Assembly (NCBI GenBank): GCA_964436805.1
Contig: CAYTEG010000001.1
Span: 1-39,517, forward strand
Source: an uncultured Candidatus Saccharibacteria bacterium
GTDB lineage: Bacteria; Patescibacteriota; Saccharimonadia; Saccharimonadales; EFPC-124
Reading direction: 5' to 3'
DNA length: 39,517 bases
Below are positions 7,722-39,460 of this stretch, piece after piece; the first letter of the stretch is position 1, and the number at the start of each line of letters is the position of its first letter. The translations under genes were made by a program, and so were the position numbers. The notes below the pieces were generated by a model that ran no database searches, was not told the origin of the DNA, and saw only the letters and a list, made by a program, of their open reading frames with translations.

Positions 7722-7750
7722 TTGACAAAAACTCTTAAAAATGATATTAT
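7722..7750 (+). promoter_or_regulatory. consensus sigma70-type promoter for the 7786 ORF
   Basis: TTGACA (7722-7727), an exact 17 nt spacer, then TATTAT (7745-7750). AAGGAG lies 6 nt before the GTG start at 7786. Confidence 0.55.
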
Positions 7751-7785
7751 TTTTTCTAATACCCCTTACCAAATAAGGAGCGATC

Positions 7786-8385
7786 GTGGAGATCTGCATC
7801 GACCCGATGAGATTCCTCGTGACTACCGCTGGTGGAGTGGGTGGCACTTTCGCCCTCAACACCCCGCACCGGCTCGATGACTCGCACCGTTTCGTTGTCA
7901 CACACGACAACCGCAAGGGCGCGCTCATCAAGCTCAAGCACGACCCCAAGGTCGTCCAGCGCGGCTTGGTGCCGTTCCTGAGCGCCACCGCCGGACGCAA
8001 CGAAAACGGCGTGCCGCGCATTCAGCCGTGCGTCGTCGACCTCGACCCCAGCCGGCCGATCTTCCCGCTGGCGCCCGTCGTCGACGCACTGCTGGCGGCC
8101 GGGACCAGTTGGGGAGAAATCAGCCCCATGGCTGCCGAGAGCGAGCTGACCGACCACGCCCCCACCGACTCGATGCCGATGATGCACAGCAATGGCACCA
8201 TCGAGTGCGACGAGATCGGGAGCACCACCCGCTTCGTGGTCAGCGACGCCACCTGGGCTGTCACCAGCCAGGACGGCTGCACGACCCACGTTTACCTGTG
8301 GCCCGGCGCCGAAGCGCACACCGCCGAGATCGTGGCCACCGTCGGCCGCATCAACTCGGGCACACTCGCCTCCATCGAGGCCTAA
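7786..8385 (+). CDS. hypothetical protein (high-GC cassette 1)
   Basis: 199 aa with a GTG start preceded by AAGGAG. One sampled 60 nt line (8041-8100) is 77% GC, all Lys codons are AAG, and third codon positions are strongly G/C-biased in this frame. I recognise no domain. Confidence 0.7.
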   Translation: MEICIDPMRFLVTTAGGVGGTFALNTPHRLDDSHRFVVTHDNRKGALIKLKHDPKVVQRGLVPFLSATAGRNENGVPRIQPCVVDLDPSRPIFPLAPVVDALLAAGTSWGEISPMAAESELTDHAPTDSMPMMHSNGTIECDEIGSTTRFVVSDATWAVTSQDGCTTHVYLWPGAEAHTAEIVATVGRINSGTLASIEA

Positions 8386-8406
8386 GCCTCCCAACTGCAC
8401 TGGCAT

Positions 8407-8436
8407 TAGCCTCCGCACGCGGGAGGCTATTTGCTT
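8407..8436 (+). terminator. hairpin terminator after the 7786 ORF
   Basis: TAGCCTCC (8407-8414), a loop, then GGAGGCTA (8422-8429), followed by TTTGCTT. Confidence 0.45.
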
Positions 8437-8477
8437 ATAAAATTGCATTGTCATAAGTAAGGGTCGACCCCACAAAC

Positions 8478-8516
8478 AAGAATTAAGACCTGCCATAAAG
8501 ACAGGTCTTAATTCTT
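8478..8516. terminator. 15 bp perfect hairpin abutting the tRNA-Gln 3' end
   Basis: AAGAATTAAGACCTG (8478-8492), a 9 nt loop, then CAGGTCTTAATTCTT (8502-8516). It is AT-rich and placed to terminate the tRNA transcript and/or convergent + strand transcription. Confidence 0.5.
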
Positions 8517-8590
8517 GGCTGGCGAGGAAGGGGTCGAACCTTCGATCTCCGCATCCAGAGTGCGGCGCCTTACCACTTGGCCACTCGCCA
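8516..8590 (-). tRNA. tRNA-Gln (anticodon CUG)
   Basis: The 75 nt reverse complement folds as a cloverleaf. Acceptor stem TGGCGAG/CTCGCCA (U1-A72), discriminator G73 and an encoded CCA. D-arm GCCAAGTGGTAAGGC. Anticodon stem CCGCA/TGCGG with loop CTCTGGA. T-arm GAAGG-TTCGACC-CCTTC. It closely resembles E. coli tRNA-Gln. Confidence 0.9.
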
Positions 8591-8671
8591 TTAATCCCGC
8601 AAAGTACATTAACGGCGCCTTCCCATAACAAATACAATCCTAGCCGCTAACAGATAGATTATACCTAAATA

Positions 8672-9100
8672 CTACTTCTTTGAAAAGCCAATGGCTTTTG
8701 AGCCGTCGAGTACCATAAAGCTGATTTTGCCAAGCACGATCAGCGCAATACTGGCGGTGGCGGCGTACCAGTTGGCGGGCAGGTCGCCGGTTGAGATTAA
8801 GTAAACGATTTCGAGCCACACAAATACAGGGGTGATCAGCGAAAACAATGCGCTAAAGCCGCGTGCAAACACGCTCAACTTAAGGCGCAGCAAAAACGGC
8901 AGCGAAAATATTTGGAGTCCGGCCAAAACCGCGATAATCCATGGTTCGCCAGGGGTATGGTAGCTAATACCGCCAAAGTCGAAACCGCCAACTCCCATAA
9001 GTTGTACCACAACCAGCGCTACTAAAATAACCGCGTATGCCGTGGGGGCAATTAAAAATTGTGGGTGGCGCACTTTTGGCGCGGGTAGCGATTTAACCAT
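8672..9100 (-). CDS. hypothetical 4-TM membrane protein, co-directional with sodN-sodX
   Basis: 142 aa from ATG 9100 (the ORF track starts at 9121). Four hydrophobic helices. It overlaps the sodX stop by 8 nt, which suggests co-transcription. Confidence 0.6.
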   Translation of the reverse strand: MVKSLPAPKVRHPQFLIAPTAYAVILVALVVVQLMGVGGFDFGGISYHTPGEPWIIAVLAGLQIFSLPFLLRLKLSVFARGFSALFSLITPVFVWLEIVYLISTGDLPANWYAATASIALIVLGKISFMVLDGSKAIGFSKK

Positions 9101-9380
9101 TTTGACTCCTTGTGCCGCCAAGTACCACTGCCCGGATTGCGCTCAGCGGCAACCACCCGAACTGCCGGCTGTCGGTGCTTTCGGCGGGGTTGTCGCCGAG
9201 CAAATACACATGGCCGTCGTGGATTTGGTCGACTCTTTTAATTATTTCGATACGATGATGACGCGCGATAACAACATCGCCCACCTTTGGCCGGCGGCCT
9301 ACGCGCATCGCCACCACCAGCTTGCCATGGGCAAACGCGGGCAGCATACTTAGGCCTTCGACACGGCGGACGAAAAACAT
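9093..9380 (-). CDS. sodX: S26-family signal-peptidase-like NiSOD maturation protease
   Basis: 95 aa. Catalytic Ser context GLSMLP and the GD..ES.DSR motif (LLGDNPAESTDSRQFG). It lies immediately downstream (2 nt gap) of sodN, the arrangement known for NiSOD maturation. Confidence 0.8.
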   Translation of the reverse strand: MFFVRRVEGLSMLPAFAHGKLVVAMRVGRRPKVGDVVIARHHRIEIIKRVDQIHDGHVYLLGDNPAESTDSRQFGWLPLSAIRAVVLGGTRSQNG

Positions 9381-9382
9381 AG

Positions 9383-9796
9383 TTAGACTTTTGACTCCTT
9401 AAACATTTTGGCGATGTCACCGACCATGTGCAGCAGGGTGTGGGCTTCGTCGGGGCTAAGGCTTTGCTTAACTTTGCTACACTGTTTGGTGGCTTGCCAA
9501 AAGGCTTCGTGCAGATTGGGGAATTTTTGCAGGTGTTCGGGCTTAAAATAATCGCTCCATAAAATATAGAGCTGCTGTTTGCACGCTTCGGCGTGTTTTT
9601 CTTTGGTTATGACCATGCGGATAAAATTGTTGTGCTCGTCGGATTTTTCGCCTTTTACATCGGCCAAGGCTTCGATTTTTTCGATCATGCGCACGCAGGT
9701 TTCGGCGGCGTGGGTCATGGTATCGGTTTCGTAAATGCCGCAGGGCACGTCGCAATGGGCGTAGACCGGTCTTATAAACTTACTAAATATATTCAT
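9383..9796 (-). CDS. sodN: nickel superoxide dismutase precursor
   Basis: A short propeptide MNIFSKFIRPVYA is followed by the Ni-hook HCDVPCGIY (canonical HCDLPCGVY). The start is set at ATG 9796, with GAGGA 5 nt upstream, instead of the ORF-track 9883. 137 aa. Confidence 0.9.
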   Translation of the reverse strand: MNIFSKFIRPVYAHCDVPCGIYETDTMTHAAETCVRMIEKIEALADVKGEKSDEHNNFIRMVITKEKHAEACKQQLYILWSDYFKPEHLQKFPNLHEAFWQATKQCSKVKQSLSPDEAHTLLHMVGDIAKMFKESKV

Positions 9797-9818
9797 GTCA
9801 TCCTCGCTTATGTTTTTT

Positions 9819-9827
9819 ATTATAACA
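9819..9827 (-). promoter_or_regulatory. extended -10 element (TGTTATAAT) upstream of sodN
   Basis: The minus strand reads TGTTATAAT about 22 nt upstream of the sodN start codon. Confidence 0.4.
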
Positions 9828-9865
9828 GGCTTAAAAAACGATGTTGTAATTTTATTATAAAACGC

Positions 9866-9894
9866 TTGCGTTTGGCTGGCCAAGCGGTTACTAT
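9866..9894 (+). promoter_or_regulatory. sigma70-like promoter of an ORF-less transcription unit
   Basis: TTGCGT (9866-9871), a 17 nt spacer, then TACTAT (9889-9894). Confidence 0.4.
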
Positions 9895-10919: not shown

Positions 10920-11537
10920 ATGCTCCCAGAGTGGTTTGTAGTGTATGCGGTCGCCCTGCGGCTTACCAGCGGGCTCAGTTACGCCCTGGCAGTCATAAAA
11001 AAACGGGCGAAACCAAACCCAATTACCTGGTTTTTTTGGGCACTCACGCCGGCGATCGTTTTTGTTGCCCAGCTGTTTGAGCACGCGGCGCTGAGCAGCA
11101 TGGCAATTACCCTGGCGCTTGGTTTTGGCCCACTGCTGGTTTTTATTTTATCGCTTAAATATTCGCTGCAGCGCACGCATTTTACTCCGGCGAGCATTAC
11201 CTGTGGCGTGGTGGCCGCGATTGGCGTTGCTTTATGGCTGACCACCAGCGACCCCAAACTCGCGATTATTTTTAGCATCGGCGCCGATATTTGCAGCAGC
11301 ATCCCGACAATCATAAAAATATGGCGCAAGCCGGGCAGCGAATTTTTGCCGGCCTACGCCATAACTATGGCCAGCATGGTTATAACCCTCCTTACTTTGC
11401 AAGCTTGGGATTTTGCCAGCTTTATATTCCCTGTCTACATTTTGGCGATTAACGCTGTTATTTTTGGCACGGGTTTTGTGGCGACGCGGCGCAAGCCGGC
11501 GCGCAGGGCGAGGCGCTTGACTTCTGCCCGCCGGTAA
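10920..11537 (+). CDS. hypothetical polytopic membrane protein
   Basis: 205 aa with about 6 hydrophobic helices and an Arg-rich C-terminus (RRKPARRARRLTSARR). I recognise no family. Confidence 0.6.
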   Translation: MLPEWFVVYAVALRLTSGLSYALAVIKKRAKPNPITWFFWALTPAIVFVAQLFEHAALSSMAITLALGFGPLLVFILSLKYSLQRTHFTPASITCGVVAAIGVALWLTTSDPKLAIIFSIGADICSSIPTIIKIWRKPGSEFLPAYAITMASMVITLLTLQAWDFASFIFPVYILAINAVIFGTGFVATRRKPARRARRLTSARR

Positions 11538-11567
11538 AAGATGATATAAGCAGTAAACATAACAATT

Positions 11568-12818
11568 ATGAACCCACAACAACCAACAACCCCACCACAA
11601 CAAACAAGTGCTGCACCTACGCCGCCAAGTGCGCCGCAAAATGGCACGTTTATTCCACCAGCTCCTGCGCCTGGCTTGCAACCCGAAACACCTAAAAAAG
11701 CACCGGCTAAACTCATGGCGGTTATTGCTGCGATAGTTGTCGCGCTTGCCGCCGCCGGCTTTGGCGTGTGGTGGTTTTTGCAAAACAACAACCAGGCCAG
11801 CGTGCCGCGCGTTAAGGTCGGGCTTATGATGGCCTTTAGCGGCGGCTCGTCGAGCATGGGGTATGGTGCCAATAAAGGCATCCAGCTCGCCAAAAAACAA
11901 CTGGGAGCCGACAACATCGAAATTGTGCAGGTCGACTCAAAATGCGACCCAAAAACAGCCGCCGAAGCCATAAAAACACTTATCGAACAAAAAGTCGTGG
12001 CAATTATTGGCGAAGGCTGCTCGAGCGCCAGCGTCGCCGCCTTGCCCGCCGCCAACAACGCAAAAATCCCAATGATCAGCCCGTCGGCCTCCAGCCCAAC
12101 GCTTACCATTCCTAACGATTACTTCTTCCGCGTTGTCCCGCCCGACAACTTGCAGGGCTCGTTTATGGCGCAAACCATCTACGATAAAGGCTACCGCAAC
12201 GTCGCCGTATTTTACACCAACGAACCGTACGGCAGCGGCATGAACACCGTGTTCCGCGAAAACTTCGAAAACCTGGGCGGCAAAGTTGTGGCCAGCGCCA
12301 CTGCCGAGCCAGATGTCATCGACCTCCGCACCCAAATGGAGCAAATTAAGGCCAAAAACCCGCAGGCGTTATTTATTGCGCCAAACTCGGTTGTTTCGGC
12401 CACGGCCGCCATGAAGGTTGCGCGCGAAGTCGGCATTACCGCACCATTTTACGGCGCCGACATTATGTACGACACCACTATTATCACCAACGCGCCGCAA
12501 GCCGCCGACGGCCTGACCATTTCGTCATTCCCCACTGGCAGCAAAGCATTTAAACAGGCGTTGACCAACGAATTCCAAAAAACCGAACAGCTATACGCGG
12601 CGCCACAAGCCTACGACATCATCCACGTGTTGCAGATTGCCACCCAAAAAGGCGCGAAAACTGGCGAGGCTGTTAAAAACGCCCTGCCGACGATTGATTT
12701 TGAAGGCGTTTCTGGCCACATTAAGTTCGATGTAAACGGCGAAATATCTGACAAAACATACAAGTACGACTTGTTCCAGGTAAAAGACGGCGCGTTTACC
12801 TTACTTGACCAAAACTAA
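11568..12818 (+). CDS. membrane-anchored type I solute-binding protein (LivJ / Peripla_BP_6-like)
   Basis: 416 aa. A Pro/Thr/Gln-rich N-terminus and a single TM anchor LMAVIAAIVVALAAAGFGVWWFL. A binding-protein fold follows: VKVGLMMAFSGG, VVAIIGEGCSSAS, IPMISPSASSP, FFRVVPPD. Confidence 0.82.
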   Translation: MNPQQPTTPPQQTSAAPTPPSAPQNGTFIPPAPAPGLQPETPKKAPAKLMAVIAAIVVALAAAGFGVWWFLQNNNQASVPRVKVGLMMAFSGGSSSMGYGANKGIQLAKKQLGADNIEIVQVDSKCDPKTAAEAIKTLIEQKVVAIIGEGCSSASVAALPAANNAKIPMISPSASSPTLTIPNDYFFRVVPPDNLQGSFMAQTIYDKGYRNVAVFYTNEPYGSGMNTVFRENFENLGGKVVASATAEPDVIDLRTQMEQIKAKNPQALFIAPNSVVSATAAMKVAREVGITAPFYGADIMYDTTIITNAPQAADGLTISSFPTGSKAFKQALTNEFQKTEQLYAAPQAYDIIHVLQIATQKGAKTGEAVKNALPTIDFEGVSGHIKFDVNGEISDKTYKYDLFQVKDGAFTLLDQN

Positions 12819-12837
12819 AGGGGTGTAGGTAACAAGG

Positions 12838-15066
12838 GTGAGCATTCGGATTAAGCTAACGATCATCATGCTCGCCATTGGGCTGGTGCCAACGATTGTT
12901 GTGAGCGCCCTGGCTTATGTTACCACTGGCGATGAGCTCACCCGCAAAACCGAAGACCAACTTAGTAGTGTCGCTGCCAACCAGCAGCAAAAAATCACGG
13001 CGCTGCTGCAAAAACACCAAGAAGAAGCAACAAAAACCGCCAACCAGTTTGACCTGCAAAGCGCGCTCAGCACCTATTTAAGTTCGGGCCACAAAAACGG
13101 CCGCAACGACATATTTAATGTTATTTCGACGAAAAAAATCGCGACGCCCGAGATTCAGGCAATTTATGTGGTCGGGCTGGACGGCGTTGTTATCTCTTCG
13201 ACCGTCAGCGGCAGCGAGGGCAAGCAATTGCAGCCCCAGGAATACGCCATACAAAGCGGCCAAGAGAGCAGTATCAGCGTTAAAGAAGATGCGCGCGATG
13301 GCATAGACAAGCTGTACATTACCATTAAAATCAGCGTTAACAAAAAAGAGTCAGGCTACCTCAACCTTATTTTTCGCATCGACGACATTGTGGCGGCAAT
13401 CCAGGATTACACTGGCCTTGGCACCACTGGCGAAACCATGATTGCCGAACGCAGCGCCGACGGCAGCGCGATTTCGCTGTTCCCGCTGCGGTTCGACACC
13501 GACGCGGCGCTCAAGAAAAACCTTAATTCGCTGCAAATACTTACGACCAGCGAAGCATTGTACCGTCAGGCAGTCGATTACCGCGGCCGCGACGTGCTTG
13601 TCACCTCGCGCTCGGTCGGTTTTGCCGATTGGGTGCTGGCCACCAAAATCGACATGGACGAAGCGCTGGCGCCAATTAACCAGCTGCGCACTACGCTATT
13701 TGCGATTGTACTGGGGTCGTCGATCGCCATTGCTATTATTTCGCTGTACTTTACCCGCTTTTTTACCGGCCCGATTTTACGCGTCGCACGCCTGGCCGAA
13801 AGTTTTGGCCGCGGCGATTTTAGCTCGCGCGTCGACTTTAAACGCCAGGACGAAATCGGTGCCCTGGGCAAAAGTATCAACACCATGGGTCGCAGTTTGC
13901 AAGATTTTGTGACCAGCCTTGAGTCGCAGCGCAACCGCCTGACGATCATCCTTAACAGCACCGCCGAAAGTATTATGGCCATCGACAAACAGGGGCGGAT
14001 TATTTTAGCCAATGCCGCAACCAACGACCTCACCCAGCTGCCCGAACGTTCGATCGTCGGCCGCCACATCGACGAATTATTTATCTGGAAGCACAACCTG
14101 CAGGATTTCGCGATCGACTACACCAAAGAAGGCACCAACACCTACTCCGACCTCGAGTACACCGATGTCGGCGGCGTCACCCACTACCTAAGCCTGACCG
14201 TGGCAAAAATTAACGGCGTGCAAGAGCTGCAACTGCCGCAAACCATTATTACCGTGCACGACCAAACCAAAAGCCGCGACCTCGAAAATATGAAGGTCGA
14301 CTTTGTGTCGATGGCCGCCCACGAACTGCGCACGCCGCTGGCTGCCACCCGTGGCTATCTGGAGCTCATCACCTTTACCGAAGGCGAAAACGTCTCGCCC
14401 GACGTTAAAAACTATCTGCAGCAGGCACTTAAAAGCACGGCCGAACTTGGCGGGTTAATCGACAACTTGCTTGGCGTCACGCGCATCGAACGTGGCACGC
14501 TCACCCTGCACCCCGAAAAGGTCGACATCGCCGCCGACATCCAGCAAGCAATACGCAACGCCAGCTTTAGCGCCACCGACAAACGCATCGCCCTTAATTA
14601 CGACGGCCCGGTCAGCGGCTGCTACGTTATTGCCGACCAAATCGCCCTGCACGAGGTGATTAACAACCTCATTACCAACGCCATAAAATACACCAACTCC
14701 GGCGGCACCGTCACCGTGCTGCTTGGGCGCGAGGGCACGCAGTTTGTGGTGCGCTTTAAAGACACCGGCATTGGCATCCCTAAAAAAGCCATGCAAAACC
14801 TGTTTACCAAATTTTACCGGGTGCGGGGCGGGCTTAACAGCGGGAGCACCGGCACCGGGCTGGGCTTGTTTATTTCAAAGTCGATCATCGAGCGCCATGG
14901 TGGTACCATTACTGTAGAGTCCGAAGAAGGCGTAGGGTCGGTGTTTAGCCTGACCATACCCGTGCTCGACGAGGCAAAACTCGCCGCGCTGCAGGTTCAC
15001 GCACAAAAATCACATACACCAACAAGGGGGAACCGTGGCTGGACTACGAAAAATATTACTCGTTGA
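12838..15066 (+). CDS. sensor histidine kinase (Cache-like sensor, HAMP, PAS, HisKA, HATPase)
   Basis: 742 aa with a GTG start. It has TM1, an extracytoplasmic region of about 250 aa, and TM2 (LFAIVLGSSIAIAIISLYF). Then come a HAMP-like region (EIGALGKSINTM) and a PAS-like region. H-box MAAHELRTPLAA, N-box NLITNAIKYT, G1 DTGIGIP, G2 GTGLGL. Confidence 0.9.
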   Translation: MSIRIKLTIIMLAIGLVPTIVVSALAYVTTGDELTRKTEDQLSSVAANQQQKITALLQKHQEEATKTANQFDLQSALSTYLSSGHKNGRNDIFNVISTKKIATPEIQAIYVVGLDGVVISSTVSGSEGKQLQPQEYAIQSGQESSISVKEDARDGIDKLYITIKISVNKKESGYLNLIFRIDDIVAAIQDYTGLGTTGETMIAERSADGSAISLFPLRFDTDAALKKNLNSLQILTTSEALYRQAVDYRGRDVLVTSRSVGFADWVLATKIDMDEALAPINQLRTTLFAIVLGSSIAIAIISLYFTRFFTGPILRVARLAESFGRGDFSSRVDFKRQDEIGALGKSINTMGRSLQDFVTSLESQRNRLTIILNSTAESIMAIDKQGRIILANAATNDLTQLPERSIVGRHIDELFIWKHNLQDFAIDYTKEGTNTYSDLEYTDVGGVTHYLSLTVAKINGVQELQLPQTIITVHDQTKSRDLENMKVDFVSMAAHELRTPLAATRGYLELITFTEGENVSPDVKNYLQQALKSTAELGGLIDNLLGVTRIERGTLTLHPEKVDIAADIQQAIRNASFSATDKRIALNYDGPVSGCYVIADQIALHEVINNLITNAIKYTNSGGTVTVLLGREGTQFVVRFKDTGIGIPKKAMQNLFTKFYRVRGGLNSGSTGTGLGLFISKSIIERHGGTITVESEEGVGSVFSLTIPVLDEAKLAALQVHAQKSHTPTRGNRGWTTKNITR

Positions 15067-15412
15067 AGACAATCCCGAACTGCGCAAAATGTACGAGACG
15101 TTTTTAAACCTTAACGGGTACTCGCTCGAAAGCGCCATCGACGGCGAAGACGGCATAAACAAAGCGCGCGAATTTAAACCAGACCTTATATTTTTAGATA
15201 TCATGATGCCCAAAAAAGACGGCTTCGAGGTGCTTAAAATATTGCGCCACGACCCGGCCTACAACTGCACGCGGGCAAAAATTGTGATGCTCACCAACCT
15301 TGGCGACAGCAAGCTCAGCGCCGAAACACGCAAAGACATGGACGGCTATGTTATTAAGGCCGAGATTGTACTAAGTGACCTCATAGAAGTTATTAAGTCG
15401 TTAGATAAATAA
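15035..15412 (+). CDS. single-domain response regulator (REC only)
   Basis: 125 aa with a GTG start preceded by AAGGGGGA, overlapping the kinase 3' end by 32 nt. Motifs LLVEDN, LIFLDIMMP and GYVIKA; no output domain. Confidence 0.85.
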   Translation: MAGLRKILLVEDNPELRKMYETFLNLNGYSLESAIDGEDGINKAREFKPDLIFLDIMMPKKDGFEVLKILRHDPAYNCTRAKIVMLTNLGDSKLSAETRKDMDGYVIKAEIVLSDLIEVIKSLDK

Positions 15413-15544: not shown

Positions 15545-15982
15545 TTATATGTCGAGATCGTCTAAATCTGCAAGCTCTTTTCGGGTTCGAGTTGCGACAG
15601 ATTCTGATTCTTCCACAGGCTTATCTGTTGTTTTTTCCACAGGTTCGTCAACCGGAGCGGCAGCAACGGGTTTGGCAGTGTCGTCAGCAGCGTCATCGCT
15701 GGCTGTGCTGTCGTCGGCTGGTGCGCCGCCGGGGCGGTCGACATCGACGATTTTTAAGTTGTAACGGGCGTCGTTTTTAGTGCCCAGGGCGCGCAGCAAG
15801 GTGCGCACACTTTGGGCAGTTGCGCCGCGTTTGCCGATTACCCGGCCTAAATCTTCGGGGTCGACAGTAAGTTCGAGTAGTACGCCCTTTTCGTCGATGC
15901 GGCGTTCGATGGTCACGGCCTCTGGTTTACTGACGAGCGATTTTATAATGAATTCCACAAACTGCTGGTCGATGCTTGTCAT
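15545..15982 (-). CDS. KH-domain RNA-binding protein (YlqC/UPF0109-like) with acidic C-terminal tail
   Basis: 145 aa. The first 80 aa or so carry the KH GxxG loop (GRVIGKRGATAQSVRTLL). About 65 aa of Asp/Ala/Pro/Glu-rich low complexity follow. Confidence 0.82.
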   Translation of the reverse strand: MTSIDQQFVEFIIKSLVSKPEAVTIERRIDEKGVLLELTVDPEDLGRVIGKRGATAQSVRTLLRALGTKNDARYNLKIVDVDRPGGAPADDSTASDDAADDTAKPVAAAPVDEPVEKTTDKPVEESESVATRTRKELADLDDLDI

Positions 15983-16063
15983 GGACAGGCTCCCATTATT
16001 TACTGTACTAACGTATTGTAGCGCACTGCCTAGGCGCAGCGCAAACTGCTTGCGGCAAAATAC

Positions 16064-16092
16064 TTGCTTTTTTTATATTTTTATGTTAATAT
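16064..16092 (+). promoter_or_regulatory. sigma70-like promoter of alpha-CTD-like gene 1
   Basis: TTGCTT (16064-16069), a 17 nt AT-rich spacer, then TAATAT (16087-16092). Confidence 0.45.
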
Positions 16093-16170
16093 ACTTTTCA
16101 TAAGCTTTGCTCAACCCTGTCAAACAGAGTGGGCGAGCTCGCCCGCTTTACACAAGAAGGGATCGTCCGT

Positions 16171-16677: not shown

Positions 16678-16697
16678 GTCGCATGTGTAAAGTGGGT

Positions 16698-16780
16698 ACC
16701 GGCTGCAGTTCGCATACTGCAGCCGGTCATCCATGAACTTATTTATAAAATACCCCACCAGGTTTTGGTGGGGTATTTTT
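16698..16780 (+). terminator. 12 bp perfect hairpin followed by an intrinsic terminator
   Basis: ACCGGCTGCAGT/ACTGCAGCCGGT (16698-16727). Then AAAATACCCCACCA / TGGTGGGGTATTTTT (16747-16780). Confidence 0.55.
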
Positions 16781-16793
16781 GTAGCGCGCCAGA

Positions 16794-16822
16794 TTGCTTA
16801 AAATTAGTTTTGATGATATCGT
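16794..16822 (+). promoter_or_regulatory. sigma70-like promoter of alpha-CTD-like gene 2
   Basis: TTGCTT (16794-16799), a 17 nt spacer, then TATCGT (16817-16822). The -35 hexamer is the same as for gene 1. Confidence 0.4.
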
Positions 16823-16864
16823 ATTACTGCAACAAACCACCCTCGACGCACAGTGAGGTACGGT

Positions 16865-17354: not shown

Positions 17355-17388
17355 GGGTACTGGTTGCACCACGACGCAACCAGTACCC
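17355..17388 (+). terminator. 13 bp perfect GC-rich hairpin after cassette 2b
   Basis: GGGTACTGGTTGC (17355-17367), a loop, then GCAACCAGTACCC (17376-17388). Confidence 0.45.
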
Positions 17389-17410: not shown

Positions 17411-17452
17411 AAAAAAATACCCCGCTCACTTTTTGCGAGCGGGGTATTTTTT
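17411..17452. terminator. bidirectional intrinsic terminator shared by cassette 2b (+) and rpsP (-)
   Basis: A7-ATACCCCGCTC, a loop, then GAGCGGGGTAT-T6. Confidence 0.55.
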
Positions 17453-22290: not shown

Positions 22291-22293
22291 AGT

Positions 22294-32427: not shown

Positions 32428-34446
32428 CTACTTTGAGTTGATTATAGCAAGCAGCGCGTCTTCGTCGATGATTTTTGTGCCCAATTTTTCGGCTTTGGTT
32501 ACTTTGCTGGCGCCGGGGTTGTCGCCCAACACCAAGTACGTGGTTGTTTTGCCAACCGAACTTTGGAACGTTCCCCCAAGCGAGCGAATTTTTTCGGCCG
32601 CGGCTTCGCGCTCCATATTGAGCGTGCCGCTAATCACAAAACTTTGGCCGTCAAGCGGGCCGCCGGTGCGCGTGACTTTTTGCGGCGCCACGCCGGCATT
32701 TGCAAATTTGGCGAGCAGTTGTTGGTTTGTTTCGGTCGCAAACCACGTAACAATGCTTTCGGCAACCACTTGGCCCACGCCTTCAACCTGCTGTAGTTCG
32801 TCAACCGTGGCTTCGCCAAGTTTTTGCAGCGAGCCAAAATGGTTGGCTAAATCAACCGCGGTTTGCGCGCCAACCTGGCGAATGCCAAGGCCGTATACAA
32901 AATGTGCCAGGCTAGGGTTCTTTTTTTCGGCAATTGCCGCCACTAATTTGCTGGCCGAGATTTCGGCAAAGCGGTCGAGCGTCAGCAGTTGCTCTTTGGT
33001 CAGGCTATACAAATCGGCCGAATCGCGGATTAATTTGGCGTCGAGCAGCGCCAACACATTTTTTTCGCCCATGCCTTCAATGTCGAGCGCCGCCTTACTG
33101 GCATAATGCTGAATTTGGTTGTGTACGCGCGCCGGGCAGTGGTTGTTGGGGCAGCGCCACACGGCGTCGTCGGCTTTTACTTTGATAAGTTCGGTGCTGC
33201 ATTCGGGGCATTTTTTGGGCATGACAAACTGCGGTTCGCGGCCTGCGCGCAGTGTTTTGAGCGATTCCACAACTTCGGGGATAATATCGCCGGCTTTGTG
33301 CACAATCACCGTGTCGCCCACACGCACGTCTTTGCGCAAAACTTCGCCTTCGTTGTGCAGTGTTGCCATTTGCACCGTGCTGCCCGCCACCACCACAGGC
33401 TCCAAAACGGCTACCGGTGTTGCCGCGCCAGTGCGGCCAATACTTATAAAAATGTCTTTCACTTTTGTGGTGGCTTGCTCGGCCGGGTATTTGTAGGCCA
33501 CGGCGCCGCGCGGCGCTTTGCCGACCACGCCAAGGTACGCAAATGTTTGGCGGTCGTTTACTTTTACCACCAAGCCGTCGGTGTTAAACGTCAGTTTGTG
33601 GCGGCGGTCTTCCCAGTGGTGGGCGAATTCCATAACTTTGGCAATGCTCGGCAACACCGCAGCGTGTTTGTTGGCAAACAGCCCAATGCTGCGGATGATT
33701 TCGTAAGCGTCGGCATACGTTGGCACATCGGTGGGGTTGTCGCGGATGATTTCCCACGCCACAAATTGCAGCGGCCGGGCGGCCACTAATTTGGGGTCGA
33801 GCTGACGCACCGTGCCCGCCGCCAAGTTGCGCGGGTTGGCAAATAGTGGTAATCCCTGCTTTTCGCGCGCGGCGTTTAATTTGGAAAACGCGTCTTTAAA
33901 CATCACAATTTCGCCGCGGACTTCGGTGCGGCCGTGCAAAAATGCTGCGTATTTTTTTGTAGCACGTAAACGCAGCGGAATAGATTCGATCGTTTTAACG
34001 TTTTGCGTCACGTCCTCGCCCACCGTGCCATTGCCGCGGGTCACGCCGCGCACCAACGCGCCGTCTTCGTATATTAATGAGCACGCCAGGCCGTCCATTT
34101 TGGTGTCGGCAAAAAACTCCAGCTTAGCTTGCGGCGCCAGTTTTTTAACGCGCTCCTCCCAGGCTTTTAGCTCGGCTTCGTCAAAAACGTCGTTTAAGCT
34201 GAGCATGCGCGTTTTGTGCTCAAAGCTCACAAACTGCGGCAGGGGCGCGCCGGCCACGCGTTGGGTTGGCGAATCAGGGGTAATAAGTTCGGGGAAGGTA
34301 TCTTCGAGCTCGGCACGTTCGTGCTTTAAGCCATCGGCTGCCGACTCGCTCATAATCGAATTGTTATTTACGTGGTATTCGTAGCGGTAGTCGTTTATAA
34401 GCTCGCGCAGTTTTGCAATGCGCGCCGCTGCTTGCGCTTTGGTCAT
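32428..34446 (-). CDS. ligA: NAD-dependent DNA ligase
   Basis: 672 aa from ATG 34446 (MTKAQAAARIAKLRELINDYRYEYHV), which forms an ATGA overlap with the upstream gene. Adenylation motif KMDG. Zn finger CPECSTEL...CPNNHCPA. HhH repeats and a C-terminal BRCT domain (GQSFVISGTL...). Confidence 0.95.
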   Translation of the reverse strand: MTKAQAAARIAKLRELINDYRYEYHVNNNSIMSESAADGLKHERAELEDTFPELITPDSPTQRVAGAPLPQFVSFEHKTRMLSLNDVFDEAELKAWEERVKKLAPQAKLEFFADTKMDGLACSLIYEDGALVRGVTRGNGTVGEDVTQNVKTIESIPLRLRATKKYAAFLHGRTEVRGEIVMFKDAFSKLNAAREKQGLPLFANPRNLAAGTVRQLDPKLVAARPLQFVAWEIIRDNPTDVPTYADAYEIIRSIGLFANKHAAVLPSIAKVMEFAHHWEDRRHKLTFNTDGLVVKVNDRQTFAYLGVVGKAPRGAVAYKYPAEQATTKVKDIFISIGRTGAATPVAVLEPVVVAGSTVQMATLHNEGEVLRKDVRVGDTVIVHKAGDIIPEVVESLKTLRAGREPQFVMPKKCPECSTELIKVKADDAVWRCPNNHCPARVHNQIQHYASKAALDIEGMGEKNVLALLDAKLIRDSADLYSLTKEQLLTLDRFAEISASKLVAAIAEKKNPSLAHFVYGLGIRQVGAQTAVDLANHFGSLQKLGEATVDELQQVEGVGQVVAESIVTWFATETNQQLLAKFANAGVAPQKVTRTGGPLDGQSFVISGTLNMEREAAAEKIRSLGGTFQSSVGKTTTYLVLGDNPGASKVTKAEKLGTKIIDEDALLAIINSK

Positions 34447-35420
34447 AACATGCTCCGGTACAAACGGTACACGTACGTGCCCAAATAAATAACCGTAAAG
34501 GCGCTTAATATTTGCACGATGGTGGGGATGATCGGCAACCATTCGAGCCGCAACATGCTGTCGAGCAACAGCGCAGGCAGCAAACAAACGACCCAGGTTA
34601 CAAATAATATTGCCGCAAGCGCCAACACATGGCCAACCATGCGCACCCGCCGGCCGACAGCCAGTTCGCTGGCAATTTGCAGCGCGCGCCAGGGGTACAT
34701 TTGCGGCAGCGTCGCGACTACCAAGGCGGTAAACGACGTCGCAAACCAGTAAATCGACAAACAACAGAGCAAAAAGGCGGCGGCGGCAAACATCATCACC
34801 TCGACCCCGCTATGTAAAAAACTGCCCGACTGCGCCGCGTTAAACACAAATAAGCCAACAGCGCCCGGCGACAACTGTAAAATAATGTACAAACCAACCA
34901 CAAGGTAGGCCGCAAAAGGCGCGCCAGCGCTGTAAATGGCGTCGCGGGCTTTTATTTTTTGGTCGGCAAAACGCATGCGCAGCAGCCAAACGATCGTCAG
35001 CCAAAAATATATGGCGAGCAGCACCGACAAAAACTGCTGCAGTTCGCTGAGCTCGCCATTAAATGCGCCCGACATGGTAGAGGTAAGCAACGACACGGCC
35101 GTGCCAAGCGAGTTAATACTGCCGCCAAGCACCTCGAGCGTGGCGTTACGCAACTCGACAAAATCGGCCTGCGCCACACCGCCCACAAACAAATACGTAA
35201 TGATTATATAAATGAGTGCGACGCGCCAAAACAGCCGCTTTTCGTGCCAAATTGTCTTAAATGACTCGACGGTGTTTTGCTTAATGCCTACCAGCGCCGG
35301 TTTTTTAAACGGCGTGCGGGTTTTGCGGAAACTGCGGTGCGGGTGCGAGGCCAAAAACGCCTTGCGCTTTTTGCGCGCCCACTTTTTTAATTGCGAGAGT
35401 TTTTGTTTGATCTGTTTCAT
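34443..35420 (-). CDS. hypothetical polytopic membrane protein
   Basis: 325 aa with a basic N-terminus and about 6 TM helices. It shares 1 nt with the htpX stop (TAATG) and 4 nt with the ligA start. Confidence 0.62.
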   Translation of the reverse strand: MKQIKQKLSQLKKWARKKRKAFLASHPHRSFRKTRTPFKKPALVGIKQNTVESFKTIWHEKRLFWRVALIYIIITYLFVGGVAQADFVELRNATLEVLGGSINSLGTAVSLLTSTMSGAFNGELSELQQFLSVLLAIYFWLTIVWLLRMRFADQKIKARDAIYSAGAPFAAYLVVGLYIILQLSPGAVGLFVFNAAQSGSFLHSGVEVMMFAAAAFLLCCLSIYWFATSFTALVVATLPQMYPWRALQIASELAVGRRVRMVGHVLALAAILFVTWVVCLLPALLLDSMLRLEWLPIIPTIVQILSAFTVIYLGTYVYRLYRSML

Positions 35421-36880: not shown

Positions 36881-36979
36881 GAGTAATATACTCCTGTTAG
36901 GTTATAGTTTAATTATAGCCTAAGCTACATAATTGTACAGCTGAAACTTTTACGTAATCGCAGCCGTATACTAACCGCA

Positions 36980-37498
36980 ATGAACGAAACCAACGTTATT
37001 AAACAAGTCCTTGCCGGTGACACCAATGCTTACGAGCATTTGGTTGCCCGCTACCACGTGGGTTTGATTATCCACTGTGAACGCCTGGTTGGCGACCGCG
37101 ATAACGCCGAAGACATTGCCCAAGAAGCCTTTATTAAAGCATTTAACACCTTGGGTAATTTTGATTCTGGCCGCGCGCGGTTTAGCACCTGGCTGTATAA
37201 AATTGCAACCAATAAAGCGATTGACCACTTACGGGCGAGCAAACGCAAAGTGCCTGTTGAAGATATTGAACTCGTGTCCGACCACGCCGCCCCCGATTAC
37301 GAAGCCGACGAAACAAAGCGCGAAGTACGCGACGCAGTCACCAAACTGCAGCCGCCTACCTACCGTCAAGTTATCGAAGCCTACTACTGGGAAGGCCAAA
37401 GCTACGAGCAAATTGCGGAGTCGCATAACATCCCTATTAATACCGTGCGCACCTGGCTGCGCCGGGCAAAGCAACAATTAAGGAGCGACCTGTCATGA
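36980..37498 (+). CDS. ECF-type RNA polymerase sigma factor (sigma-70 family group 4)
   Basis: 172 aa. Region 2 (NAEDIAQEAFIKAF...FSTWLYKIATNKAIDHLR) and region 4 (YRQVIEAYYWEGQSYEQIAESHNIPINTVRTWLRRAKQQL). Confidence 0.9.
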   Translation: MNETNVIKQVLAGDTNAYEHLVARYHVGLIIHCERLVGDRDNAEDIAQEAFIKAFNTLGNFDSGRARFSTWLYKIATNKAIDHLRASKRKVPVEDIELVSDHAAPDYEADETKREVRDAVTKLQPPTYRQVIEAYYWEGQSYEQIAESHNIPINTVRTWLRRAKQQLRSDLS

Positions 37499-38760
37499 AA
37501 GATTATACTTTCGATGCCAAAATCGTCGCTGCGAGCCCATACAGCGACAAAATAAACAGCTTCGTAAAACAAACTATGCAGCAAATTAACCGCGCACATC
37601 CGCCAAAAAAGCAAAGCTTTGTTTTGTGGGCGCAATTACACAAACCGGCGTTTGCACTGCTCGCCTTTATCGCAGTGGTGCTGCTTGGCAGCGCTGTGTA
37701 CGCCGCCGTGCATTTTGCACCCGCGTTCGTACAACTGCTTGGCAAAGAAACAAACCAGCGCGGCGCAACCGAATATTCGATTGCCGGCTTTGGCGACTGC
37801 GCCAAAAACGACGGCCCGGCCTTAAAACGGCTCGAAGTTAAAAAAGACGCCAACCTCAGCGACGACGAAGTGCATAAAATATTGCAAGCTCGCTGCGAAA
37901 TGCTTTGGCTGCAGAATTTTCCTGGCAAAGTTTGGCCAACCACCGGCACCAACGCCGAGTGGAAGGACGGCGACACCATTTACTACACCCGCCTCGACAT
38001 GTTGGGCGGCTATAAAAATGGTGACCAAAACCACGCCACGATTGATTTTGGTGGGAACGTTGTCGAGCACACACCACCTAACGGCGAAAAAATACGCGCC
38101 TTTGCCGCTGGCGAAGAAATCCAGCTTGGCGGCCTTAAACCAGGCGACACGGTGTTTACCATTAGCCGCGTCAGCGAAACCTACCACGAAATGAAGGGCG
38201 CAGTGTTCAACAAATCGATGAACCAGCTTAACGTCTACCCCAGCGAACAGCCAAAAGTCATCGGCTTGGTCGCCCTGTTTAAAATGAGCCTGCCGTTAGA
38301 CTACTACATAGAAAAGCAGATGTACGTGACCGAAGTCCCGGAGTGCCCGGGCAACCCTGGCGAGCTCTGCCCTAACACCGCCAGCGTCGACGTCTACCCC
38401 CGTGCCGGTGGCGAAGGTGCAAGCAACCCCTACCGCACGCCTTTCACCGAATCAAACATTATGCGCCAAATTAGCGGCACCGTCACCCAACTGGGCGACG
38501 ACACGCTCACGCTCAAATCGCGCAGCGGCAAAACATACACCGTCACGGTTGGCGACGCCGGGTTTAAAGACTACAACCAAAACTACACCCAAGCCTACGG
38601 CAGCGAAGACGTCACCTTGCGGGTTGGCAGCACCGTGCAAATAATATACGTGCAGGCGCAAAACGACGACGTCACGAAAATCACAAAACAGCAAGTTGAA
38701 AGGGTGACATTACAACTCGACTCGCTCAACCCTAAAAAAGATACGATAAAACAGTACTAG
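37495..38760 (+). CDS. putative anti-sigma factor / membrane-anchored extracytoplasmic protein
   Basis: 421 aa in an ATGA overlap with the sigma gene. A short cytoplasmic N-terminus, one TM helix (FALLAFIAVVLLGSAVYAAV) and an outside domain of about 340 aa. No zinc-binding HxxxCxxC motif, so the anti-sigma role rests on position only. Confidence 0.6.
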   Translation: MKDYTFDAKIVAASPYSDKINSFVKQTMQQINRAHPPKKQSFVLWAQLHKPAFALLAFIAVVLLGSAVYAAVHFAPAFVQLLGKETNQRGATEYSIAGFGDCAKNDGPALKRLEVKKDANLSDDEVHKILQARCEMLWLQNFPGKVWPTTGTNAEWKDGDTIYYTRLDMLGGYKNGDQNHATIDFGGNVVEHTPPNGEKIRAFAAGEEIQLGGLKPGDTVFTISRVSETYHEMKGAVFNKSMNQLNVYPSEQPKVIGLVALFKMSLPLDYYIEKQMYVTEVPECPGNPGELCPNTASVDVYPRAGGEGASNPYRTPFTESNIMRQISGTVTQLGDDTLTLKSRSGKTYTVTVGDAGFKDYNQNYTQAYGSEDVTLRVGSTVQIIYVQAQNDDVTKITKQQVERVTLQLDSLNPKKDTIKQY

Positions 38761-38780
38761 CAACAAAAAAAGTTCTGCAT

Positions 38781-38810
38781 AAAATACCAGCCGTCGTGGC
38801 TGGTATTTTT
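38781..38810 (+). terminator. intrinsic terminator
   Basis: AAAATACCAGCC, a loop, then GGCTGGTAT plus T5. Confidence 0.6.
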
Positions 38811-38811
38811 A

Positions 38812-38840
38812 TTGTAAAAGCTAGTCTTTTGTTATATAAT
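38812..38840 (+). promoter_or_regulatory. near-consensus sigma70-type promoter for cassette 6
   Basis: TTGTAA (38812-38817), a 17 nt spacer, then TATAAT (38835-38840). Confidence 0.5.
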
Positions 38841-38911
38841 ATTAAAGCTTTAGCCACCCTGTGGCTTAATGCACAGGGTACAGGCACCGAGACGATTGGG
38901 AGACCTCAGCA

Positions 38912-39460
38912 ATGACCGACTCCATCCCCACCGCCAAAGCGTTCGCGCAGTTGCTCGAACGCGCCCAGCGGGGACGCAAGCGCACCGCCCGCGAGATCAC
39001 GGGCGACGCCGCGAGCAGCGCAGCCGACATCGTCGGCACCGGCGAGCAGTACACCAACCGCTACGCCGTGCCGGACGACTGCAGCGTGTTCCCGCGGCAC
39101 CACACCACGGCCGCCAGCCGGATCGACGTGTACGCGCATGACGACGGAACCCTGGTGGTGTACGCGGCGCTCACCTGGCAGACCGAGACGGCGACGCACC
39201 GGATCGCGACGCGCTACCGCATCACGGCCGAAGGCGACGGCGTCGTTGCCATCGTGACGACGCTGGCGGACGACATCACGCCGTTCAAGCCGGGCGAGAT
39301 CGACACTGACGCCGCGACGGCGTACCAGGCCAAGGTGAGCAACTGGCTGGCCGAAAACGCGGCCAACTCCATCACCCTCGGCGCGGTGCGGGGAACGCTC
39401 GACCAGCAGAGCCTGGCCGACTTCGCCATGATGATCACCACGACCCCGTCCGACCTGTAG
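38912..39460 (+). CDS. hypothetical protein (high-GC cassette 6)
   Basis: 182 aa with GGGAGA upstream of the ATG. GC-rich with G/C-ending codons; no domain recognised. Confidence 0.6.
   Translation: MTDSIPTAKAFAQLLERAQRGRKRTAREITGDAASSAADIVGTGEQYTNRYAVPDDCSVFPRHHTTAASRIDVYAHDDGTLVVYAALTWQTETATHRIATRYRITAEGDGVVAIVTTLADDITPFKPGEIDTDAATAYQAKVSNWLAENAANSITLGAVRGTLDQQSLADFAMMITTTPSDL

Follow-up and report, generated by a model that had tools for sequence, protein, structure and literature searches.

Several kinds of single genes that stand out from their surroundings have been described in bacteria and their mobile elements. Phage morons, recognized by Hendrix and colleagues, each consist of one gene with a promoter and terminator of its own, lie between conserved neighbors, and are off composition; naturally transformable bacteria gather accessory genes in a few slots between core genes; and the mycobacterial PE/PPE proteins (PE_PGRS) are lineage specific, fast evolving, GC-richer than their genome, and tied to host interaction and recombination. 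Here, we analyze a 39,517-nucleotide (nt) stretch of a Saccharibacteria contig (CAYTEG010000001.1), hereafter the window, in which seven GC-rich open reading frames (ORFs), C1 to C7, stand as single-gene cassettes within a housekeeping backbone. Compositional outliers are usually read as recent, decaying transfers, whereas these cassettes are old residents of their chromosomal slots whose foreign look has been kept up even as their proteins diverged to the verge of being unrecognizable.

The cassettes resemble morons in having their own promoter and terminator, conserved neighbors, deviant composition, and no recombinase genes. They differ in sitting in a housekeeping region (rnc, rpsP, nusB, leuS, and murF) and not in a prophage, and they are slot conserved and vertical where morons are sporadic. 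A moron or prophage remnant was rejected in view of the housekeeping neighbors, the lack of a significant PHROGs match, negative IMG/VR scans, and a tblastn search of phages that gave no more than weak matches to the C-terminal domain of RNA polymerase alpha (alpha-CTD). As in accessory hot spots, a few slots hold variable, lineage-specific genes with no integrases or repeats, but the cassettes are orthologous across a subclade, diverge in place, and lie far from the backbone in composition. The likeness to PE/PPE genes in lineage restriction, speed, and GC excess is an analogy only, as the cassettes show no sequence similarity to them, no repeats, single-copy slots, and a much larger GC excess over the backbone. 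Within Patescibacteria, transferred genes and islands have been reported to make up as much as 13% of genomes (PMC12455944), and transfers between Saccharimonadia and their actinobacterial hosts have been proposed (10.64898/2026.09.16.751625). Those transfers are recent and of high identity, whereas the cassettes have no detectable donor and combine slot orthology and extreme divergence with a kept G+C content at third codon positions (GC3). A literature search found no description of slot-orthologous, hyperdivergent genes with maintained GC3.

The backbone of the window is that of Saccharibacteria (Saccharimonadales), from a soil genome and carried on a contig of a metagenome-assembled genome (MAG). 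Its rnc gene is 83% identical to that of a Candidatus Saccharimonas MAG and 68 to 91% identical to those of dozens of other Saccharibacteria contigs, and the 83 to 91% identity to Saccharimonadales MAGs bears out the earlier guess, made from the letters alone in a first-pass annotation, that the organism was Saccharibacteria-like. Backbone genes include those for type IV pilus ATPase and platform proteins, a KH protein, and a NUDIX protein, as well as trmD, rpsP, rnc, nusB, leuS, murF, and ligA, among others. The proteins of the window are singletons at 90% clustering, and an Rfam scan of the window returned two tRNAs and nothing else.

The seven ORFs were compared with 35 other plausible genes of the window, which we define as the backbone set. 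GC3 was 0.70 to 0.96 in the seven ORFs (Table 1) and 0.53 to 0.69 in the backbone (mean, 0.61; standard deviation, 0.04), such that 7 of 7 lay above every backbone gene (Mann-Whitney p = 4e-8) and the separation by GC and codon statistics expected by the first-pass annotation was found with no overlap. The weakest outlier was C4 (0.70), which is encoded on the minus strand. G+C contents at first and second codon positions (GC1 and GC2) were also elevated, and the order GC3 > GC1 > GC2, the periodicity of coding sequence under GC pressure, was present in all seven. Amino acid usage differed as well: Gly, Ala, Arg, and Pro (GARP) accounted for 0.34 of cassette versus 0.27 of backbone residues, and Phe, Tyr, Met, Ile, Asn, and Lys (FYMINK) accounted for 0.18 versus 0.26. 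Whole-ORF GC was 0.61 to 0.71, and the richest 300-nt windows reached 0.65 to 0.74 over a sliding-profile background of about 0.52; thus, a GC content of 75 to 77%, as earlier claimed, applies to the richest lines of sequence only. The claimed preference for the Lys codon AAG was real, as C2 has 18 AAG and no AAA codons whereas the receiver gene at 15035 has 3 AAG and 10 AAA codons.

Codon choice in the cassettes pointed in more than one direction. Relative synonymous codon usage (RSCU) correlated at 0.85 with an actinobacterial reference versus 0.71 with the backbone. When the choice of C versus G at G/C-ending codons was set against the backbone and an Aeromicrobium/Nocardioidaceae reference, the outcome was mixed, and the choice for Val, Leu, and Gly was the backbone's. 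The sense strand of the cassettes was richer in A than in T, with AT skew as high as +0.44. Ordinary translational selection was ruled out as the cause of high GC3, as the GC3 of rpsP was only 0.57. A poorly conserved native gene in the same slots, hyp362, had an ordinary GC3 of 0.53. A further GC peak (6651-7050) reflects a Gly/Ser low-complexity tract within a native secreted-protein gene.

Each ORF is built as a unit. A Shine-Dalgarno-like sequence could be read ahead of all seven start codons, and past each of the seven stop codons lies a stable hairpin (folding energy of the folded segments, -24 to -57 kcal/mol). The first-pass annotation had described both features and had excepted the last ORF from the hairpins; the exception was wrong, as the C7 hairpin starts inside the window. 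It had also assigned sigma70-like promoters to every unit, and promoter-like sites were recognizable for C1, C2, C4, C5, and C7, those of C3 and C6 being weak. In C2, C3, and C7, two hairpins follow in series, a GC-rich one lacking a T-tract and then a native-type terminator consisting of an A-tract, stem, and T-tract. The GC-rich segment spans the 5' untranslated region (UTR) to the terminator hairpin in all seven cassettes, GC changes abruptly where the transcripts begin and end, and AT-rich promoters separate tandem cassettes. Neighbors were as described earlier, with C4 between rnc and rpsP, C2 and C3 between rpsP and the KH gene, C6 between leuS and murF, and C1 beside tRNA-Gln. We conclude that all seven ORFs are genuine genes, each an autonomous transcription unit of its own, as the claimed cassette anatomy implied.

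Table 1. Cassettes of the window and GC3-rich genes of related contigs. Positions refer to the window unless a contig is named.
Feature	Position	Strand	Description
C1	7722..8429	+	Promoter-like TTGACA-17-TATTAT with TG extension at 7722-7750; Shine-Dalgarno AAGGAG
C1 ORF	7786-8385	+	199 amino acids (aa); GC3 0.88; post-stop hairpin 8407-8429
C1 setting			Between secreted-protein gene 6464-7720 and tRNA-Gln(CTG) 8516-8590
C2	16064..16779	+	Promoter-like TTGCTT-17-TAATAT at 16064-16092; 5' UTR hairpin 16131-16144
C2 ORF	16171-16677	+	168 aa; GC3 0.96
C2 3' end			GC-rich hairpin without T-tract 16698-16727, then native A-tract/stem/T-tract terminator 16747-16779
C3	16794..17452	+	Weak promoter-like site 16794-16822; ORF 16865-17344, 159 aa, GC3 0.80
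C3 3' end			GC-rich hairpin 17355-17388, then bidirectional terminator 17412-17452 in common with rpsP
C4	17922..18501	-	On the backbone's strand; promoter-like site 18501-18473 within the 3' end of rnc
C4 ORF	18444-17947	-	165 aa; GC3 0.70; post-stop hairpin 17951-17922
rpsP promoter	17916-17888	-	Downstream of C4
C5	20373..21141	+	Conserved upstream block with TTGACG 20373-20390; promoter-like TTGCTA-17-CAATAT at 20418-20446
C5 ORF	20514-21086	+	190 aa; GC3 0.92; terminator hairpin 21109-21141
C5 setting			Between an rpmF-like ORF plus nusB and a hypothetical gene of native GC plus leuS
C6	25365..26353	+	ORF 25365-26306, 313 aa, GC3 0.78; post-stop hairpin 26318-26353; between leuS and murF
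C7	38812..39517	+	Promoter-like TTGTAA-17-TATAAT at 38812-38840; 5' UTR hairpin 38852-38866
C7 ORF	38912-39460	+	182 aa; GC3 0.94; GC-rich hairpin from about 39468
L075, RR-KH slot			Two alpha-CTD genes, GC3 0.73-0.76
L075, KH-rpsP slot			alpha-CTD gene, GC3 0.93
L075, rpsP-rnc slot			164-aa ORF, GC3 0.65
L075, nusB-leuS slot			C5 homologue, GC3 0.93
L075, beside murF			C6 homologue, GC3 0.74
L075, after leuS			C1 homologue, GC3 0.75
KH-trmD GC3-rich gene, L003	13624-14010
KH-trmD GC3-rich gene, L004	5530-5958
KH-trmD GC3-rich gene, L005	9355-9831
KH-trmD GC3-rich gene, L083	7486-7827
KH-trmD GC3-rich gene, L084	12038-12379

The possibility that the GC-rich segments are chimeric or the product of contaminant binning, or that the ORFs are chance frames in GC-rich noncoding DNA, is very slight. 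The contig does come from a MAG, long chance ORFs do arise on both strands of GC-rich DNA, and the final 35 nt of the window look erroneous. Independent assemblies covered the junctions of C1, C2, and C7, however, and contradicted a chimera in each case. One Logan contig (L157; run SRR9179560) equals 6761-8486 exactly, including the upstream gene, C1, and the C1 hairpin; a second (L072; run SRR9179563) equals 15594-16852 exactly, including the KH gene, C2, and the C2 terminator; and a third (L156, also from SRR9179563) spans the upstream gene through C7 and reproduces the upstream junction. Because of these exact matches, and because the same cassette architecture recurs in unrelated metagenomes of the Joint Genome Institute (JGI) and the European Nucleotide Archive (ENA), chimerism of C1, C2, and C7 is very unlikely. 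Codon periodicity, a Pfam domain, a confident C5 fold, Shine-Dalgarno sites, and kept ORF lengths likewise argue that the ORFs are genes.

The last approximately 35 nt of the window (39483-39517) differ from contig L156 of the same run by error-like changes of G or T to C that destroy the hairpin after C7, and probably represent a contig-end or assembly error. In L156, the C7 hairpin is intact and is followed by a native T-tract terminator. The terminators flanking C7 resemble each other, a likeness that fits the A-tract/stem/T-tract form of terminators found throughout the genome. C7 sits 3' of a gene for an extracytoplasmic function (ECF) sigma factor and a 421-aa ORF; the two lie at 36980-38760 on the plus strand, the sigma gene overlapping the start of the 421-aa ORF, which has no family match and possibly encodes an anti-sigma factor.

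No integrase, transposase, or reverse transcriptase was found among the genes of the window, and no convincing direct repeats or target-site duplications flank the cassettes, in agreement with the mobility-gene absence remarked on in the first-pass annotation. Three further classes were considered and rejected. Integron gene cassettes were excluded, as the window has no integrase and the units are dispersed, mostly have their own promoter-like sites, and end in short perfect stems in which no attC-like core sites were noticed. A tRNA-targeted island was excluded, as C1 lies 130 nt from tRNA-Gln but there is no integrase and the sole flanking repeat, of 15 nt and 87% identity, is not the tRNA 3' end. 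The target of a diversity-generating retroelement was excluded, as there is no reverse transcriptase and there are no repeat pairs, and the A-rich sense strand is not the expected adenine depletion.

Large protein databases were searched with C2, C5, and C7, and families were gathered by an iterated search over all ORFs of the fetched genome loci, in which the gene calls are heuristic. None of the seven proteins gave a tblastn match at E < 1e-5 in the first 71 loci. Among 5.8 billion clusters, C2 had one homologue (P0011; 55% identity), which is encoded on a 2.6-kb JGI contig (L073) that carries C2', C3', rpsP, C4', and the end of rnc in the order and orientation of the window, with GC3 of 0.94, 0.71, 0.51, and 0.61 for the first four, respectively. 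The C3 orthologue on that contig is 54% identical, and the C4 orthologue, the sole clear one, is 52 to 57% identical. ORFs of C4 length (159 to 166 aa) occupy the rnc-rpsP slot of three other relatives (L075, L080, and L077) and have in common with C4 only a C-terminal hV.hP...L motif, a pattern that suggests C4 orthologues diverged almost past detection. An exhaustive HMMER search of 1.84 billion representatives gave two real homologues of C5 (P0012 and P0014; 30 to 33% identity), both adjoining leuS on Saccharibacteria contigs, and the C5 family now comprises six genes that share one slot and have GC3 of 0.68 to 0.93. The C6 family has four members, the orthologues in L075, L076, and L078 being in the same slot with 36 to 39% identity and GC3 of 0.65 to 0.74. 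C1 has a single homologue, a 186-aa ORF in L075 with 27 to 31% identity that lies in a different slot. C7 found none but itself among the 5.8 billion clusters and none among the ORFs of the fetched loci.

The L075 contig, 57.6 kb from farmland, is collinear with the window at 74 to 92% backbone identity, and it has GC3-rich genes in several slots (Table 1). A metagenome scan added further close relatives (L076 to L081), of which L076, L078, L079, and L080 show the same pattern. Altogether, homologues of six of the seven genes were found only within closely related Saccharibacteria, and those of five (C2 to C6) occupy the same slot; homologues of C2 to C6 were missing only where rnc identity was 83% or less. 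GC3 was raised in all of the relatives' cassette homologues, and ORF lengths were kept among orthologues. The rnc-rpsP and rpsP-KH slots are empty in more distant relatives (80 to 150 bp and 116 to 263 bp, respectively, in L001, L002, and L082), and thus the cassettes were acquired no later than the base of a subclade. Slots of other more distant relatives hold a PadR-like gene and a membrane protein, or a methyltransferase-like ORF. In one close relative, the KH-RR slot (L078, 12572-16946) holds a 605-aa ORF of GC3 0.72 and, behind it, four paralogues in tandem, each about 188 aa long and low in GC3 (0.43 to 0.49).

Mobile elements yielded little. When the seven proteins were compared by tblastn with 50,697 phages, weak alpha-CTD matches only were obtained, and comparison with 72,556 plasmids gave rpoA copies only, mostly from Streptomyces. 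IMG/VR scans with C5, C2, C7, and C1 gave nothing, and PHROGs, NCBIfam, and Pfam searches of the cassette proteins gave nothing apart from the alpha-CTD domain. Many large Streptomyces "plasmid" records (matches H9 to H33) bear an rpoA copy, and these were the sole plasmid matches to cassette proteins.

Regulatory sequences were inherited together with the genes. The window and L073 have 87% identity over the promoter and hairpin-bearing 5' UTR of C2, above the conservation of the coding region, and the post-stop hairpins of C2 and C3 show compensatory stem changes between the two. In the C5 family, both the upstream block and the terminator hairpin can be aligned in six lineages, and the cassette ends (5' UTR hairpin, first codons, and 3' hairpin) are more conserved than the middle. 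Synonymous divergence (dS) between the window and L073 was 0.41 for C2 and 0.43 for rpsP, and between L076 and L078 it was 0.76 to 1.0 for cassettes and 0.4 to 1.9 for the backbone. C5 identities agree with the backbone tree for that close pair: L076 and L078 are 96% identical in nusB, nudix, and rnc and 51% identical in C5, and all other pairs are 88 to 94% and 22 to 33% identical, respectively. From slot orthology, co-conserved promoters and hairpins, matching dS, and this agreement, we conclude that the cassettes were inherited vertically with the chromosome, promoters and hairpins included.

Proteins encoded by the cassettes changed far faster than their neighbors. Nonsynonymous divergence (dN) was 5 to 20 times that of neighboring core genes. 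The ratio dN/dS (omega), calculated by the plain Nei-Gojobori method on pairwise alignments with a dS that is biased at extreme GC3, was 0.78 for C2, 0.37 for C3, about 1.1 for C5 and C3 versus L075, 0.42 for C6, and 0.30 to 0.77 for the L076/L078 pair, compared to 0.03 to 0.15 for backbone core genes. Such a rate excess is as would be expected of arms-race or weakly constrained genes.

The first-pass annotation had instead read the seven genes as repeated acquisitions of individual genes from a high-GC donor, an Actinomycetota host being the obvious one for a Saccharibacteria-like organism. This was supported only in part and, in the sense of recent, separate insertions, was not supported, as two outcomes that the annotation had itself named as refuting were largely observed. 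Detectable homologues were confined to the same lineage, five of the seven genes lie in the same slots in relatives with raised GC3 and co-inherited promoters and hairpins, and their dS is that of their neighbors. Recent acquisition under native promoters, with donor GC3 as yet undecayed, could claim that RSCU is nearer the actinobacterial reference than the backbone, that the alpha-CTDs resemble actinobacterial RpoA, and that the slots are empty in distant relatives. Saccharibacteria are, moreover, epibionts of Actinomycetota. As the same-slot orthologues with conserved promoters and hairpins, the neighbor-like dS, the lineage-confined homologues, and GC3 of 0.92 to 0.96 in orthologues only 29 to 58% identical all run against it, we consider this explanation improbable overall and, for C2 to C6, largely refuted by slot orthology.

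If the cassettes are old, their composition should have decayed toward that of the backbone. Synonymous sites of the backbone are saturated between the window and L075 (proportion of synonymous differences [pS], 0.55 to 0.71). A rough two-state estimate, which assumes 0.5 or more synonymous substitutions at each site in each lineage and an equilibrium of about 0.58 for the backbone, suggests that under passive decay most of the GC3 excess should be gone, leaving a GC3 of about 0.75. The C5 orthologues of the window and L075 have 29 to 32% protein identity, yet both have GC3 of 0.92 to 0.93. Consistent with upkeep, synonymous differences in C2 at codons for the same amino acid comprised 12 exchanges between G and C versus 4 between strong and weak bases, compared to 3 versus 21 others in rpsP of the same pair (p = 1e-4), counts that are small at 16 to 26 per gene. 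In C5, 12 of 18 differences were G-C exchanges versus 35 of 269 in leuS (p = 9e-7), and the cassette rate of such exchanges was, on small numbers, about three times the backbone's. Thus, A/T-ending codons were filtered out during divergence in place, and passive decay after transfer does not fit, as the synonymous differences are mostly G-C exchanges. We conclude that a continuing, gene-specific, GC-favoring force keeps third positions G or C and, therefore, that the high GC is not simply the undecayed mark of a recent transfer.

Dominance of G-C exchanges is also the divergence expected inside a high-GC genome and could arise by repeated allele replacement from an unsampled high-GC pool. Homologous recombination with such a reservoir (host, plasmid, or phage), with GC3 recording the time since the last swap, might further account for GC3 of the C5 family (0.68 to 0.93), which differs among lineages out of step with the backbone tree, and for cassette ends that are more conserved than the middle. 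No reservoir sequence was found, however, in 1.84 to 5.8 billion proteins, the 50,697 phages, the 72,556 plasmids, or IMG/VR. Moreover, the dS of C2 equals that of rpsP, and the close pair has C5 identities in keeping with the backbone tree, such that we regard recurrent replacement as a long shot.

Two of the proteins have a recognizable domain. C2 consists of a basic Lys/Ala N-terminal tail, a Pro/Ala-rich linker, and an alpha-CTD-like domain, and its paralogue C3 is likewise built of a basic N-terminal tail, a Pro/Ala-rich linker, and such a domain. Both match Pfam PF03118 (RNA_pol_A_CTD) at 41.3 and 28.5 bits, respectively, over a cutoff of 23.8, with 59 of 67 model positions covered, and they align across the whole helix-hairpin-helix domain, including the PIEELDL...YN.L motif. 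RpoA chains of the PDB align to C2 residues 95 to 163, the best being that of Streptomyces (E = 1e-12), followed by Mycobacterium tuberculosis (2e-9), Bacillus (about 1e-8), and Escherichia coli (0.03). C2 and C3 are not themselves RpoA, as their best score was 47 bits against an equivalog cutoff of 434 and only the last approximately 70 model positions matched. Like stand-alone alpha-CTD-like proteins (e.g., NCBIfam PRK07758) and the CTD of alpha itself, they have the PF03118 domain; unlike RNA polymerase alpha, they lack the alpha N-terminal domain and carry a Pro-rich linker and a basic Lys/Arg tail in addition. C2 reads LSIGAYN at the TVRS motif and is without its Arg, which we take to be the DNA-contacting Arg265 of E. 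coli alpha. Possible roles of C2 and C3 are to bind DNA or to serve as decoys for the partners of alpha-CTD.

In relatives, each locus has between one and three alpha-CTD genes, all fast evolving, and one of these genes has two tandem CTDs. The actinobacterial RpoA model NF003514, which Streptomyces and M. tuberculosis CTDs match about 30 bits above the generic model, was the best model for five of six scanned slot alpha-CTD proteins, by 4 to 12 bits; that of L039 gave no NCBIfam match. The comparison was made among RpoA models without a Saccharibacteria RpoA, none being present within the 157 fetched loci. C2 and C3 are the only ones of the seven that resemble a specific donor group.

The other proteins are less revealing. 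In C6, a signal peptide precedes a body rich in Thr, Ser, Ala, and Pro, behind which lie a C-terminal membrane anchor and an acidic tail, and C6 is probably a membrane-anchored cell surface protein. C5 is predicted to be a soluble six-helix protein, its AlphaFold2 (AF2) model having six helices, a predicted local distance difference test score (pLDDT) of 78, and a predicted template modeling score (pTM) of 0.74; no PDB fold matched that model meaningfully (best E = 1.6). C1, C4, and C7 had no family or phage-family assignment in Pfam, PHROGs, or NCBIfam and no structural assignment, and are ORFans; the single-sequence AF2 model of C7 (pLDDT, 53) was of too low quality for a fold search. We infer that the cassettes likeliest encode host interaction or regulatory factors, host interaction, in an arms race, being the most natural role for genes of an obligate epibiont.

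The analysis shows the composition, anatomy, taxonomy, slot conservation, vertical co-inheritance, rate excess, and G/C-constrained synonymous pattern of the cassettes; donor, insertion route, cause of GC upkeep, and functions are inferred. In the reading that we favor, with moderate assurance, the cassettes are old, lineage-restricted slot genes that probably came from a high-GC donor, have been vertical since, evolve fast, and are held GC-rich. Their source would have been high in GC and probably actinobacterial, and they would have entered no later than the base of a Saccharimonadales subclade. The route would have been uptake of DNA that then recombined into hot spots lying between core genes, a course that needs no integrase and would explain the lack of mobility genes. 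The genes would then have passed vertically in fixed intergenic slots with their promoters and hairpins, diversifying at arms-race speed while a gene-specific force kept them GC-rich. An old high-GC origin is plausible, and the Actinomycetota donor proposed by the first-pass annotation is credible for the alpha-CTD pair (Streptomyces RpoA; NF003514), although no donor homologue was found for C2, C5, or C7. The redundant native-type terminators that follow T-tract-less hairpins in C2, C3, and C7 were counted as a further hint of a donor.

Several points weigh against this reading. Full-length C2, C5, and C7 had no actinobacterial or other outside homologue in the large databases, and C1, C3, C4, and C6 were not validly searched there. 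The actinobacterial model outscored other RpoA models by only 4 to 12 bits, and the alpha-CTD could be a duplicate of the organism's own rpoA. The lineage-dependent GC3 of the C5 family, the possible source of G-C exchanges in allele replacement, and the small counts of synonymous differences bear on the upkeep of GC3, as the bias of dS at extreme GC3 bears on rates. Finally, since high GC leaves few chance stops, omega near 1 could mean that some of the ORFs are only weakly constrained.

Some of these points lead to the main rival, which ranks ahead of recent transfer, allele replacement, and artefact, in that order, and which we consider unlikely while taking it seriously. It holds that the cassettes never had a donor: they would be native, for example duplicates of the organism's rpoA CTD and de novo or very divergent genes, whose GC3 was raised locally, driven by GC-biased gene conversion at the recombination-prone slots of a competent organism or by selection on composition. 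The absence of outside homologues would follow directly, and GC3 is maintained in situ with G-C substitutions at about three times the backbone rate, GC1 and GC2 are raised too as a nucleotide-level force would give, GC3 differs by lineage, and the C-versus-G choice for Val, Leu, and Gly is native. Some slot alpha-CTD genes, moreover, have native GC3 (0.55 in L039 and 0.57 in L077). Known effects of GC-biased conversion in bacteria amount to a few percent of GC3, however, and the gap here is +0.35. Also against a native origin are the sharp GC boundary at transcript ends with AT-rich promoters between tandem cassettes, the fit of the alpha-CTDs to the actinobacterial RpoA model, T-tract-less hairpins with redundant native terminators behind them, and the ordinary GC3 of poorly conserved native slot genes such as hyp362.

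A more speculative suggestion, to which we give little credence, is that a host-like GC-rich composition is itself actively selected in genes that act at the host interface. In one version, linked to the uptake of host RNA, host-like codons would tie translation of the cassettes to host-derived tRNA or RNA and, hence, to host attachment; alternatively, the cassettes may have begun as host transcripts, the GC-rich segment running from the 5' UTR to the hairpin in all seven. Both versions would make the alpha-CTD paralogues evolving mimics of the host RNA polymerase alpha-CTD. Uptake of host RNA by Patescibacteria, together with codon usage complementary to the host's, has been reported (preprint 10.64898/2026.06.21.733656), which makes host-like codons in a parasite genome more curious.

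Under the favored reading of old, vertically inherited slot genes, GC-based calls of transfer in Patescibacteria would misdate such genes. A gene-specific force on synonymous sites in a reduced genome could reflect biased gene conversion, selection on composition, or a link to the epibiotic lifestyle. The cassettes also offer a compact candidate set of host interaction factors in a group with almost none known, including stand-alone alpha-CTD-like proteins for which the actinobacterial RpoA model was the best of those tested.

Similar genes occur elsewhere. An orthologous small gene between KH and trmD, in another subclade, has GC3 of 0.88 to 0.97, is highly divergent, and lies on the strand opposite the backbone (Table 1). 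Contigs L037 (20029-20628) and L116 (19226-19825) encode a 199-aa secreted protein of GC3 0.82 in a backbone of GC3 of about 0.40, which indicates that isolated GC3-rich genes are not confined to the subclade of the window. The pattern thus recurs in other Saccharibacteria lineages and is testable genome-wide.

Other genes of the window have features of their own. In this subclade, the KH-trmD interval (10920-15412, plus strand) holds genes for a hypothetical protein, a periplasmic binding protein, a Cache/HAMP/PAS histidine kinase, and a receiver protein, and elsewhere among the relatives it is a gap of 0.6 to 1 kb. A nickel superoxide dismutase gene (Sod_Ni; 9093-9883, minus strand) lies beside one for an S26-type peptidase, is conserved in relatives, and has native GC3 of 0.57 to 0.64. 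This pair is typical of Actinomycetota and cyanobacteria and may be an older, fully blended transfer, unlike the cassettes. The leuS gene (22327-25260, minus strand) has a NUDIX domain (residues approximately 400 to 527) inserted past the editing domain, and its L075 orthologue shows the same Pfam pattern. A 57-aa ORF at 20163-20336 on the minus strand (MGKPKKQTSPRKTGLRQSH...) has no Pfam match and is presumably ribosomal protein L32 by its appearance; a 57-aa gene lies at the same place in L075. Finally, the mechanical ligA ORF (32428-35420, minus strand) has an N-terminal extension of about 176 aa and overlaps the 3' end of the ORF at 34443-35420 by about 320 nt, such that the true ligA start is probably further downstream.

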